6,463 nucleotides of DNA from a virus (IMGVR_UViG_2740892046_000005), one strand, 5' to 3'; counted from the first letter of the stretch, positions 2,211 through 6,463 are shown. A program made the numbers and translations. The notes: a model not told the origin generated them from the letters alone.

Positions 2211-2430
2211 TCTGAATATCCCCCCAACTGATATGAATATTACGGGCAGCAATGACAGGGTCGTTATTCCACCATGCACCTGACATGTATTTTTCAACCT
2301 GTTCGCGTCCGGCAATAACACCAATTGTGATCCCCGGCCTGACGTTCTTAAAAAAGGCGCGGGCAAAAAGGTATCTGGCAGATATTCGGCAGGCTTTTAA
2401 TTTCCGGCTTTTACCTGATAGCGTAATCAT
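2200..2430 (-). CDS. Hypothetical basic protein, 76 aa
   Basis: ATG at 2430 overlaps the upstream stop as ATGA; GGAGG lies 4 nt upstream. No recognised homology. Confidence 0.5.
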   Translation of the reverse strand: MITLSGKSRKLKACRISARYLFARAFFKNVRPGITIGVIAGREQVEKYMSGAWWNNDPVIAARNIHISWGDIQNDG

Positions 2431-3110
2431 CTGGCCTCCAGTTTCTGTTGTTCCTGCCCACTGACCGGGCGGTGCAGTCTGACGTTCTGCCCTTCAAGAA
2501 ACCCCGCATAGCGCGAGGCGTCGCCATTGCGGCTTCTTCCCGGTTTACGCGCCCTGGTGGTTTGCGTCTGCGGGTATTTATGTTCCAGCCACTGCTGCAT
2601 CAGTTCACGTTCGTCATCGGTCAGGGCGAAGGACTGTATTTCACTGATAACGGCCAGCACCCAGCCTTCAGCAAACTGGTCACCACGGCTGGTACGGGTG
2701 GCAGTTTTTATTCTTTTGTTCTGTGCGCTGATATATTGCTGACGCGCCTTTTTCAGCTGGCGGGCCAGCACTTCCCAGGTGTACGCAGCCAGTGCAGCCC
2801 GTTCCCGGTTGCCGTAGAACCCCACACCCGGATATGTGCCGGGGTGAATGATGGAGTTAACACCAAATGCCTCGCGGATGATGTTCATCAGGCCCAGCAT
2901 GTAGCGCGGTGGACGGAGGCTGCCTGTCGGCCAGTAGTGACTGATGGTTTCATCAATATCACTCATGGCGATGTCGGAATGTGTGATGCCGTGAACATCC
3001 ATCAGTTTACGGGCACGGCGCAGTGCCAGAGCGGCCTCGTGAGGGTTGCCGGATGCGGCCAGCGCCAGCAACTTTTTCAGTTTCTCAATGTGTTTATCCT
3101 GGTCTGTCAT
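2427..3110 (-). CDS. DUF2786-like phage protein, 227 aa
   Basis: ATG at 3110 overlaps the MazG-like stop as ATGA; GGAG upstream. N-terminal IEKLKKLLALAASGNPHEAALALRRARKLMDVHGI resembles the DUF2786 signature recalled from phage and plasmid proteins. Function unknown. Confidence 0.75.
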   Translation of the reverse strand: MTDQDKHIEKLKKLLALAASGNPHEAALALRRARKLMDVHGITHSDIAMSDIDETISHYWPTGSLRPPRYMLGLMNIIREAFGVNSIIHPGTYPGVGFYGNRERAALAAYTWEVLARQLKKARQQYISAQNKRIKTATRTSRGDQFAEGWVLAVISEIQSFALTDDERELMQQWLEHKYPQTQTTRARKPGRSRNGDASRYAGFLEGQNVRLHRPVSGQEQQKLEAR

Positions 3111-3412
3111 TGTTCAGTATCTCCGGTGTACATGACGCCCAGCCGTGCGGCAAGGCGTTCCAGTTTTTTCTGTTTGTGGAAGTCAATCAGCCGGTCCATT
3201 CCCTGAAGGCGCAGCTGCTCTGTCATGATTTCCACGTCTGCCAGCTCTGCCGCGAGGTCACTTTCGCTGCCCTGTCCGTTCAGGTTGCGGGCGGCACTGG
3301 CCGCCAGTTCAGCGGCCTCTTCTGTCAGTTTCAGGGCCTGTGCGTCCGGCCCGAAACGCTGCAGGGCCAGACGGTAGAGGGCGGTGCGGGTGAGTTCGGT
3401 GTTCCGTGTCAT
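3107..3412 (-). CDS. MazG-like all-alpha nucleoside triphosphate pyrophosphohydrolase, 101 aa (putative)
   Basis: ATG at 3412. Contains the paired acidic motifs EEAAE and ELAD separated by about 19 residues, as in the MazG/HisE family EExxE...ExxD signature, and is the size of small phage MazG-like proteins. Motif-level call only. Confidence 0.7.
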   Translation of the reverse strand: MTRNTELTRTALYRLALQRFGPDAQALKLTEEAAELAASAARNLNGQGSESDLAAELADVEIMTEQLRLQGMDRLIDFHKQKKLERLAARLGVMYTGDTEQ

Positions 3413-3421
3413 GCCGCGCCC

Positions 3422-3694
3422 TCAGTGTTTCCGGTCGACGGTGATGTGCAGGCCGCCTTCTGCAGTGGTTTCCATCCGGTACGGCACCTCATGCTCTGCC
3501 GTGTGGGTGAGTGTGTTCATCAGTACCTGCAGGGCAGCCTCCTTTCCGTTGGTCGCCACAATGGCCTGTGTGGCCATGCTGATTAGCGCCGTCAGGACGT
3601 GCTTCACATCGGTGAGGTCGCGGCATTCACACTCGTTGACATAGTGTTCAACAAGGGTTCGGGTGCGCTGTCGTGCTTCCTGTGGGGTAATCAT
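3422..3694 (-). CDS. Hypothetical protein, 90 aa
   Basis: ATG at 3694 overlaps the zinc-ribbon gene stop as ATGA; GGAGG 7 nt upstream. No recognised homology. Confidence 0.65.
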   Translation of the reverse strand: MITPQEARQRTRTLVEHYVNECECRDLTDVKHVLTALISMATQAIVATNGKEAALQVLMNTLTHTAEHEVPYRMETTAEGGLHITVDRKH

Positions 3695-3885
3695 TGCGCG
3701 TCCTCCCTGTCAGGGCGGGAGAATTCCATGACGGGCACGTCCGCCGAAAAATGCTGGCTGCAGTACGGGCAGACCAGGGTGACACGTACTGCAGGTATGT
3801 GATACTTACCGGACATCACGGCGATGGCGCTGTGAAAACGCAGGGCTGTTATATCCCTCTCGCACTGAATACATTTAAATATCAT
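3691..3885 (-). CDS. Small zinc-ribbon protein (CxxC...CxxC), 64 aa
   Basis: ATG at 3885 with GAGGAG 9 nt upstream. Cys pairs at residues 5/8 (CIQC) and 39/42 (CPYC). First gene after the only sizeable intergenic gap in the operon. Confidence 0.65.
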   Translation of the reverse strand: MIFKCIQCERDITALRFHSAIAVMSGKYHIPAVRVTLVCPYCSQHFSADVPVMEFSRPDREDAQ

Positions 3886-3982: not shown

Positions 3983-4513
3983 TTACTGCACATCCTGCTC
4001 AAAAGGAATTATTGAAAAATCCTCAATGTCGCTTTTAATGGAAATACCGGGAATATTTTTCACGGCCTCTTTTTCATTCAGAATGGCATCTTTATTTATT
4101 TCCTCCTTTACACGAATAAAGCGCTCAAGCCCCAGACGTCTCAGCAGTTCAATGACATTATCCGCCCCGCGAATGCTGACTGACGGCGGACGGTTTCGCC
4201 ACTGCACCTCGCCGGTGGTGAGGTTAGCGAACTTCACCTTCCCGTTGCCGGTCAGTTCATCACGGTGCGCCTCACACCATGTCTGGATACCGGACTGCAG
4301 TTCGGCCATGCGTTTTTTCAGGCTCTCGGTGAGCGGGGCATAACGTGCAGTGATGTCGCCAATGGTGTCATTCATTTCTGTTTCAGCCCTGACCAGTTCA
4401 CGTTGCGCGTCACCAAGCAGTCTGATTCCCTCAATGACCTCTTCGCGTGTCCCCGGCACCCAGAGTGCTGCTGCGGCTTTGATACGTTTTGCCCCTTTTG
4501 TACTTTTTGCCAT
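3983..4513 (-). CDS. gam: Gam-like host-nuclease inhibitor / DNA end-binding protein (Mu Gam family), 176 aa
   Basis: ATG at 4513 with AGGAGG 9 nt upstream. Extended similarity to Mu Gam as I recall it, for example ETEMND, WCEA(H/N)RDELT, GKVK(F/T)ANL, PPSVSIRG, LGL(E/Q)RFIR, EINK(D/E)AIL and the C-terminal IEDFSIIPFEQ. Confidence 0.9.
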   Translation of the reverse strand: MAKSTKGAKRIKAAAALWVPGTREEVIEGIRLLGDAQRELVRAETEMNDTIGDITARYAPLTESLKKRMAELQSGIQTWCEAHRDELTGNGKVKFANLTTGEVQWRNRPPSVSIRGADNVIELLRRLGLERFIRVKEEINKDAILNEKEAVKNIPGISIKSDIEDFSIIPFEQDVQ

Positions 4514-4812: not shown

Positions 4813-5979
4813 TTAAACCCCTTTGACAACGTCAGCGTTGACCTGTGGAACCCCGATTTCAGCGGCCAGATTCATGGCGGCTATCACCAGGTTACTGACG
4901 GCCAGCGGATACAGCAGGCTGACCATATTTTTACGATGACTTCCCGGATTGCTCAGGCGGGCACGTATGGCATCCACTGCGCTGGCGTCCATAATGTCCG
5001 TCAGTTGTTTACCGGCCCGTTGCAGTTTGAACGTCAGAAATTCTTCAAGGTTATTGTCCAGAGGCAGAAGTTCGACCACCTCACAACGCTGAACGACTTC
5101 ACGGACTTCCATATTGCGTTCAGACAGTTTTGTCGCCAGTTCCGGCTGGCCAATCAGCACGATGGACAGCAGTTTTTTGAAACCGGACTCCAGCTCAAAA
5201 AAGCGTTTGAGGTGTTTCAGTGTCGGAATGGGCAGACTGTGGGCCTCCTCAATCACCAAAACGTGGCTGAACCCCGCCTGGCTGCTGTCTTTCAGGACGC
5301 GATGCAACTGGCGAAAGCGGGCGTCCTGACTGCGTCTGATGCTTTCCAGTGGTGCGATGGTACTGATAATGGCTTCGGCAATCGCTGCTGCCTTCAGGGT
5401 TTTCCCTTTCACATCGTTGTCTTCCATAGCGATGATGTATGGCTCGATAACAATTACCGGCGCATTCTCGCGGTTGATACGTTCAGTCAGGTCGCGGCGC
5501 AGCGTGGATTTACCCGCACCGGACTCACCGATGACGGCCATAAACCCACCATGACGGGCTGTCTGGTACAACGCCTCACGCACGTAGCGAATGTCCGGGG
5601 TGGTGAACACATCATCAGAACCCTGCATGGCTTCATCGGCGAACGGGTCACGGAAAAGACCAAACGCTTTTTTGGTTGCTGGAAATAACACCTGTTTTTT
5701 GAGTAACATATTCTCTTCCTCACTGAGGCTCGTTTTATCTGTGGTACCCGCTGTACGGGGCGTGGCTGCGCCCTGTACAGCATCAAAACTCTTCGTTGTA
5801 TCAATCCCCTGACTTTCCAGCCAGGACGCAAGACGCCGGCGCACTTCTCCGGGGCTGGTGCGGGGCCACGCGTTATGATTCACAATCTGGGCCAGCGTGG
5901 CCTCAGAAACATCGACAGCTCTCGCCACCACCGCCTGTGGGATACGGGCCTCTTTCAGTTGCTGCTTCAGTACCAGCAT
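4813..5979 (-). CDS. B: Mu B-like DNA transposition ATPase (AAA+ with N-terminal HTH), 388 aa
   Basis: Preferred start is the ATG at 5979 with GAGGAGG 5 nt upstream. Walker A GESGAGKST and Walker B-like HVLVIEEAH; N-terminal HTH-like IPQAVVARAVDVSEATLAQIV. Lies directly downstream of the transposase-like gene as in Mu and Tni-type elements. Confidence 0.85.
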   Translation of the reverse strand: MLVLKQQLKEARIPQAVVARAVDVSEATLAQIVNHNAWPRTSPGEVRRRLASWLESQGIDTTKSFDAVQGAATPRTAGTTDKTSLSEEENMLLKKQVLFPATKKAFGLFRDPFADEAMQGSDDVFTTPDIRYVREALYQTARHGGFMAVIGESGAGKSTLRRDLTERINRENAPVIVIEPYIIAMEDNDVKGKTLKAAAIAEAIISTIAPLESIRRSQDARFRQLHRVLKDSSQAGFSHVLVIEEAHSLPIPTLKHLKRFFELESGFKKLLSIVLIGQPELATKLSERNMEVREVVQRCEVVELLPLDNNLEEFLTFKLQRAGKQLTDIMDASAVDAIRARLSNPGSHRKNMVSLLYPLAVSNLVIAAMNLAAEIGVPQVNADVVKGV

Positions 5980-5989
5980 GTTTTCCTCC

Positions 5990-6463
5990 TCAGTTGCCGT
6001 TAACAATGCTGATAACACTGCTGCGTGCCGGCGTGGTCAGCGTGGCCATGACTTCATCCAGTGCAGCTTCCGGTACGCCGTCCGGGTACTGTGCCGTTAA
6101 CTGGCGGTAATGTTCCGGCGTCCAGGTAAGGCCGTCGGCGCTGAACTTATCGCGCAGGGCTTTCGCGGCCTCCACATGAGTCATGGGACGTTGTTCAGTG
6201 CGCGGCCCGCGTACGTCAGAGGCCTGACCACGCTTCGGCATATAGGCCGGAAGTGTGGTGTCGTCGATATGTTTATACGGGTCAAGCCGCCCGCCGAACG
6301 GCAGCGCCTTCGCCTTGCGTGCGGCAGCTGCATCTGCGGCGTTGTCTGTACCGGTGACCAGCGCTTCGGTTTCTTTTGCCGCCATCTGCGCCGGGGTTTC
6401 CGGCAGGGCTTTGTAACTTTCGCCAAATACCGCCGCGCCTTCAGCAAAGCCAAACTCGTTCTT
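5990..6463 (-). CDS. C-terminal portion of a transposase A-like protein (5' end beyond the window)
   Basis: The frame is open from the window edge to the TGA at 5992..5990, and that stop sits inside the Shine-Dalgarno of the B-like gene. Assignment rests on synteny (A then B) in a Mu-like context, not on recognised motifs. Confidence 0.55.
   Translation of the reverse strand, partial: KNEFGFAEGAAVFGESYKALPETPAQMAAKETEALVTGTDNAADAAAARKAKALPFGGRLDPYKHIDDTTLPAYMPKRGQASDVRGPRTEQRPMTHVEAAKALRDKFSADGLTWTPEHYRQLTAQYPDGVPEAALDEVMATLTTPARSSVISIVNGN

Follow-up and report, generated by a model that had tools for sequence, protein, structure and literature searches.

The 6,463-nucleotide viral sequence IMGVR_UViG_2740892046_000005 (the window, by which we mean the whole stretch of DNA analyzed) forms the left arm of a transposable prophage that is BcepMu-like (genus Bcepmuvirus); 78% of the window aligns with phage PhiKM, at 97% identity. 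The minus strand of the window carries a short gene, WP_000197789.1, whose product we take, with a probability of roughly three in four, to be a metal-dependent nucleoside triphosphate (NTP) pyrophosphohydrolase from a single-domain, outlying, and mostly phage-borne branch of the MazG/HisE superfamily. Our leading guess is that the enzyme sanitizes or shapes the pool of ribo- or deoxyribonucleoside triphosphates, (d)NTPs, in preference to hydrolyzing alarmones; the initial annotation of this locus had held that the substrate could not be read from the sequence, and we concur.

The open reading frame (ORF) is a real gene under purifying selection. The ratio of nonsynonymous to synonymous substitution (dN/dS) against the PhiKM gene is 0.15, and against a homologue from Dickeya the synonymous sites are saturated while protein identity still stands at 65%. 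The product, MTRNTELTRTALYRLALQRFGPDAQALKLTEEAAELAASAARNLNGQGSESDLAAELADVEIMTEQLRLQGMDRLIDFHKQKKLERLAARLGVMYTGDTEQ, has the length of 101 amino acids (aa), and the gene the coordinates, that had been proposed for it; the strand had been left unstated. The overlap between its stop codon and the start codon of the DUF2786/DUF7168 gene that follows (Table 1) suggests that the two are translationally coupled.

Several sequence comparisons bear out the assignment to the MazG/HisE superfamily. Residues 1 to 100 align with positions 113 to 214 of the 218-position profile of PHROG 2245, "nucleoside triphosphate pyrophosphohydrolase" (E = 3.8e-34; 119 bits), the N-terminal half of which has no counterpart in the window protein; two further MazG-type PHROGs were matched weakly, and the current RefSeq product name is [quoted passage not shown] The superfamily is represented in Pfam by MazG (PF03819), MazG-like (PF12643), and PRA-PH (PF01503), and these three were the best Pfam matches of the family consensus, with MazG (E = 0.018) and MazG-like (E = 0.022) lying below the cutoff. 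When 73 diverse relatives, 29 to 67% identical to the query, were scanned at E <= 0.01, 19 matched Pfam MazG (best, 2.2e-5), while MazG-like and PRA-PH were matched by three each. Eleven unrelated families drew one or two matches apiece in the same scan, 13 in total, a background that is above the nominal expectation by chance of ~0.7 matches over all Pfam families for 73 queries at that threshold yet far below the 19 matches to MazG. With the family profile, the PDB yielded BcMazG (5ie9) at E = 0.007, with EExxE falling on TEEMGEL and ExxD on EELGD, and iMazG at E = 0.055. PDB profile matches to 3zta (the N-domain of a STAS protein) and to designed coiled coils had E values like those of the real MazG matches and were judged to be spurious because they lack the EExxE motif; a PDB sequence search with the single protein returned no significant match, just chance helical ones (IWS1 and EsrB). 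The link to canonical MazG, as traced through these sequence comparisons, is transitive but consistent, and because no single Pfam, NCBIfam, or PDB statistic passes a curated threshold, we regard the family as an outlying subfamily. The initial annotation had proposed that the lack of any significant profile hit to MazG-like families would count against the assignment; the PHROG 2245 match is strong, whereas those to Pfam and NCBIfam fall below threshold, and the assignment survives this test narrowly.

The branch to which the protein belongs is large. A profile of close homologues retrieved 10,519 representatives, one per cluster at 50% identity, at E <= 1e-3, and 2,046 at E <= 1e-10. Members occur in 45 deposited phage genomes, including those of Clostridium phages, Cellulophaga phi10:1, Xanthomonas jumbo phages, and Halobacterium phiH, and many of them are already annotated as NTP pyrophosphohydrolases. 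No recognizable Pfam domain was found in the N-terminal extensions of longer relatives.

The paired acidic motifs that had been claimed for the product are present, EExxE as EEAAE at residues 31 to 35 and ExxD as ELAD at residues 56 to 59, and their spacing of 20 residues is inside the range of 12 to 28 that characterizes the motif pair in the superfamily. Such a pair turns up in 0.39% of shuffled sequences of the same composition and is only moderately improbable; the pattern EExxE-x(12-28)-ExxD also fits, by chance, the unrelated Gam protein of the window (EEVIEGIRLLGDAQRELVRAETEMND), and the motif pair alone is therefore not diagnostic. Conservation extends beyond the pattern. In the set of 73 relatives, E31, D59, and Q66 never vary, and conservation reaches at least 90% at E32, E35, E56, A58, K83, and R86; in a second, independent set of 83 sequences, E31, E32, E35, D59, Q66, K83, and R86 are all invariant. 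The fixation of five acidic and two basic residues over such divergence points to the pattern of an active site.

Structure prediction, which had been suggested as a check on the fold, gave a confident all-helical model. A first AlphaFold run, with 25 close homologues, was unstable, and we used a second, with 83 diverse sequences (predicted local distance difference test [pLDDT] score, 92.6; predicted template modeling [pTM] score, 0.79). Helices span residues 9 to 44, 50 to 68, and 73 to 91, and our reading of the model is a four-helix MazG-type domain in which helices 1 and 2 are fused at G21/P22. Each motif sits in midhelix, EExxE on helix 2 and ExxD on helix 3; these two helices are adjacent and antiparallel in the model, and the register of their hairpin would, we infer, set E35 opposite D59. 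The best Foldseek matches of the model were DCTPP1 (probability, 1.00; template modeling [TM] score, 0.52), iMazG, BcMazG, AF1178, and YpjD, with HISN2 and S-2L MazZ further down; a separate list of structural matches was headed by the AF1178 pyrophosphatase and four PRA-PH/HisIE structures, with YpjD, the TM MazG-related protein, iMazG, RS21-C6, and E. coli MazG lower. The best matches are thus MazG/HisE structures, and the predicted compact all-alpha four-helix domain can be superposed on solved members of the superfamily.

A number of observations weigh against this assignment. The window protein matched Pfam PRA-PH at E = 0.035 (14.9 bits, with a cutoff of 21.3) and the NCBIfam hisE model at E = 0.034 (14.4 bits, with a cutoff of 42.7). 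No Foldseek match reached E < 1e-3, TM scores were only about 0.4 to 0.5, and root mean square deviations were high. Alignment with hhalign of the family profile to the single sequences of E. coli MazG and QQG33500.1, a phage protein considered below, produced no signal, single-sequence templates being too weak. Residue 55 is Ala in the window protein, whereas most of the family has Glu there (EExxD). The literature that we searched contained no assayed member of this subfamily, and the preference for one class of substrate derives wholly from gene neighborhood.

Comparison with characterized proteins helps to place the branch. The solved single-domain MazG proteins (Sulfolobus SSO3215, 1vmg; integron iMazG, 2q5z and 2q73; the Bacillus-conserved MazG, BcMazG, 5ie9; Bacillus subtilis YpjD, 2gta; AF1178, 4qgp) are ~20 to 30% identical to the window protein in structural alignments; they differ in that the best of them is reached by profile only at the E value of 0.007 given above, the window protein has an intermotif loop of 20 residues, and Pfam misses it at threshold. 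The family-specific conserved positions Y13, G21, Q25, Q66, K83, and R86 also set the family apart from them. DCTPP1/RS21-C6, the mammalian dCTP pyrophosphatase 1 (7mu5, 2oie, and 2a3q), is eukaryotic and 22 to 24% identical, and its substrate preference cannot be transferred to the window protein. E. coli MazG, of the mazEFG operon, has 263 aa in tandem domains, in contrast to the single domain of 101 aa described here, and was aligned to the family profile by hhalign with a probability of 0.7%. The MazG of cyanophages and the MazZ of S-2L (7ody), also members of the superfamily, are NTP pyrophosphohydrolases of phages and act on deoxyribonucleoside triphosphates (dNTPs). MazZ, a weak structural match to the window model (E = 2.4; TM score, 0.43 to 0.46), works in the Z-base pathway, and no genes of that pathway were seen among the window genes by Pfam and PHROG annotation. 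Cyanophage MazG of the S-PM2 type prefers dGTP and dCTP and does not hydrolyze (p)ppGpp (PMC6850273).

The functional reading draws on the surroundings of four relatives whose gene context was examined. In a Mu-like prophage of Dickeya the relative directly follows gam and has different downstream neighbors; on a metagenomic phage contig its neighbors are DNA methylases on one side and a D5 primase-helicase on the other, with a sigma factor and NrdD/NrdG nearby; on another contig it sits in an early-gene region with RecT, a DNA methyltransferase, and RecU; and in a Clostridium prophage it follows RecT, an MBL-fold protein, a DnaB/DnaC-type loader, and an HNH gene. Recurrent placement, in unrelated phages, among genes of replication or nucleotide metabolism, with no conserved partner, favors a stand-alone enzyme acting on (d)NTPs in phage DNA synthesis. 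The DUF2786 gene was considered as an obligate partner and rejected, since the pairing is not conserved: PhiKM has an extra 71-aa gene between the MazG-like and DUF2786 genes, and the Dickeya homologue has no adjoining DUF2786 gene.

We envisage an all-alpha, metal-dependent enzyme that would be made with the early genes (transposase, MuB, and Gam through GemA) of an E. coli prophage and that, by analogy with the solved single-domain MazG proteins, is probably dimeric or tetrameric. Carboxylates from helix 2 (E31, E32, and E35) and helix 3 (E56 and D59) would coordinate one to three Mg2+ or Mn2+ ions, the conserved basic residues K80, K83, and R86 of helix 4 would hold the phosphates, and a water molecule would attack the alpha-beta bond to yield a nucleoside monophosphate and pyrophosphate, the most likely role of the reaction being to sanitize or reshape the (d)NTP pool during phage replication. 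In this account, what we infer is the catalysis, the oligomeric state, the class of substrate, and the biological role.

An enzyme of this kind might instead serve in host takeover or antidefense, and for this there is an experimentally supported precedent. Atd1 of Pectobacterium phage PcCB7V, likewise a short, single-domain phage protein of the MazG/HisE type with twin acidic motifs, hydrolyzes ppGpp (Km ~50 uM) and not ribonucleoside triphosphates, and it rescues cells from the toxicity of TIR-STING and of retron-TIR (bioRxiv 10.1101/2022.06.09.495361). Superfamily fold and motifs are common to Atd1 and the window gene, and a position in the early operon suits a takeover function; early hydrolysis of (p)ppGpp by an enzyme resembling Atd1 or E. 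coli MazG would blunt the stringent response and block abortive infection triggered by alarmones. We nevertheless think it quite unlikely that this is what the gene does. The published Atd1 is probably QQG33500.1, because no other MazG/HisE-like ORF occurs in the close vicinity, a few genes either way, of the PcCB7V nucleotidyltransferase; it is an 86-aa protein (MW367417.1, 102104 to 102364, minus strand) annotated as "phosphoribosyl-ATP pyrophosphatase" and encoded two genes from the nucleotidyltransferase. Its motifs, EEVEE and EMSD, are just 15 residues apart, compared with 20 in the window protein, and beyond the motifs the two proteins have no detectable similarity (BLASTP E = 0.24; hhalign probability, 0.6%), so that the specificity of Atd1 is not transferable. 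A phage MazG that had for long been taken to degrade (p)ppGpp proved not to do so and to prefer dNTPs, as noted above for the cyanophage enzyme (PMC6850273). In addition, the family hidden Markov model (HMM) found nothing in the whole PcCB7V genome, and the relatives of the window protein are placed in replication modules.

MazG-type enzymes are house-cleaning enzymes for noncanonical NTPs (compare the title of PMC3855555). This activity, together with the early position of the gene and its carriage by a phage, lends circumstantial support to the idea that the substrate is a nucleotide made by a host defense system, whether an immune second messenger or a toxic nucleotide such as the chain-terminating ddhNTPs or (deoxy)inosine triphosphate, and the prediction of MazG domains within defense systems marks nucleotide pools as a site of conflict (PMC13092281; bioRxiv 10.64898/2026.01.15.699771). 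The idea strikes us as most improbable, given that PADLOC returned no defense system match for the MazG-like gene or its small neighbors, that no conserved association with known antidefense genes emerged in the contexts examined, and that Atd1 does not cleave cyclic di-GMP (bioRxiv 10.1101/2022.06.09.495361). The proposal that the protein is a dedicated counterdefense factor of transposable phages, which by early removal of (p)ppGpp or of a toxic or signaling nucleotide made in defense would shield replicative transposition from abortive-infection and nucleotide-poisoning systems, is in our judgment unlikely. It is very unlikely that the gene encodes either a noncatalytic helical protein that has retained a MazG-like fold, such as a regulator or binding partner, or a true HisE (phosphoribosyl-ATP pyrophosphatase). 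The near-invariance of the five acidic residues and of K83 and R86 across thousands of diverged sequences is that of an active site, not of a scaffold, and in contrast to HisE/PRA-PH proteins (PF01503; 1yvw, 3c90, and HisIE 6j22), the window protein misses the hisE equivalog (TIGR03188) by far and has phage early genes, with no genes of histidine biosynthesis, as its neighbors. A role as a defense gene protecting the lysogen was also considered and is unlikely, because the gene lies within the block of early lytic genes and because the minus strand of the window showed no promoter-like site that could serve it alone.

The genes of the early block, all on the minus strand, run from the 3' end of the transposase through the MuB-like ATPase, an 89-aa ORF, Gam, a 64-aa Zn-ribbon-like ORF, and a 90-aa ORF to the MazG-like gene, the DUF2786/DUF7168 gene, two small ORFs, GemA, and Mor (Table 1). 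The initial annotation had described the gene as embedded in the early operon, and its place in a codirectional block between gam and gemA upholds that wording, which is a fair description by synteny with Mu, early expression being presumed from the same comparison. The hairpin just 3' of mor is strong; other minus-strand hairpin matches were weak, and shuffled sequence gave at least as many, and Rfam found nothing in the window. In that annotation no such enzyme was known from canonical Mu, and we found the same: neither the protein nor the family consensus retrieved a Mu record by tblastn, and the family HMM found nothing in a six-frame translation of Mu positions 1 to 11,000 (best E, 0.24). 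The MazG segment is present in 621 of 5,426 complete E. coli genomes (~11%, or about 1 in 9) and the MuB-Gam segment is present in 637, which indicates a core gene of this E. coli prophage lineage, not sporadic cargo.

Table 1. Positions of the MazG-like gene, its motifs, and other features of the window
Feature	Coordinates	Strand	Description or evidence
MazG-like ORF (WP_000197789.1)	3107-3412	minus	101 aa, ATG start, single domain; ORF listing
EEAAE (E31-E32-A-A-E35)	3308-3322	minus	EExxE motif, helix 2, predicted metal ligands; sequence and conservation
ELAD (E56-L-A-D59)	3236-3247	minus	ExxD motif, helix 3, predicted metal ligands; sequence and conservation
GAGGG ribosome-binding site	3419-3423	minus	6 nucleotides 5' of the ATG; overlaps the stop codon of the upstream 90-aa gene
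ATGA overlap	3107-3110	minus	MazG-like stop and DUF2786/DUF7168 start; read from sequence
MuB-like AAA_22/ExeA transposition ATPase	4813-6018	minus	Pfam AAA_22; PHROG 296 "DNA transposition protein"; RefSeq; after transposase 3' end
Mu Gam-like host-nuclease inhibitor	3983-4513	minus	Pfam Phage_Mu_Gam, E = 1.9e-40; upstream, same direction
64-aa Zn-ribbon-like ORF	3691-3885	minus	CxxC pairs C5/C8 and C39/C42; phrog_3401
DUF2786/DUF7168 protein	2427-3110	minus	227 aa, immediately downstream; Pfam; phrog_421
GemA	1553-2044	minus	Pfam GemA, 1.3e-40; closes the early/middle block with Mor
Mor	1183-1581	minus	Pfam Mor, 1.1e-43
Terminator-like hairpin	1110-1140	minus	Strong, 14-bp stem; just 3' of mor
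210-aa ORF	436-1068	minus	Hydrophobic N-terminal segments; phrog_12870; no Pfam or PADLOC match
53-aa ORF	271-432	plus	phrog_15726

Some further features of the locus may be recorded. The start codon of the gene in the MuB position is uncertain, because its longest ORF encodes 401 aa from a GTG codon, compared with 388 aa in RefSeq. In relative P0037, the gene call fuses the 64-aa Zn-ribbon-like ORF to the MazG-like ORF, and the intervening 90-aa gene is missing there. The two ORFs between mor and the prophage end (region 271 to 1146) look like moron-type cargo. The end itself falls near position 75 (TGATCAGACATGAG...). From position 75 onward the window has the same sequence as strain EC13, and before it the two are unrelated, which indicates that the site occupied by the prophage varies among strains, as it should for an active transposable phage. 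The prophage of EC13 interrupts an ABC-transporter permease gene; the 74-nucleotide flank in the window, the translation of which resembles a transposase or integrase fragment, matches with 100% identity a "hypothetical protein" gene of the PhiR12 phages.

The kind of enzyme described here is not new; such enzymes are common in phages, and both a RefSeq name and a PHROG family already exist. Our result mainly confirms the existing automatic annotation, to which it adds a structural and evolutionary basis, and the gene stands for a branch of the MazG/HisE superfamily that is very large, borne mostly by phages, and missed by Pfam. What so abundant a phage enzyme hydrolyzes, and why Mu-like phages keep the gene, are questions that are directly testable, although the answers are not expected to surprise. 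Transposable phages depend on the host replisome, and knowledge of the substrate would reveal how they manage nucleotide pools and whether the branch, like Atd1, counters host defenses that are nucleotide based or alarmone dependent; if the protein were indeed a counterdefense factor, the more than 10,000 clusters at 50% identity would constitute a new antidefense class.
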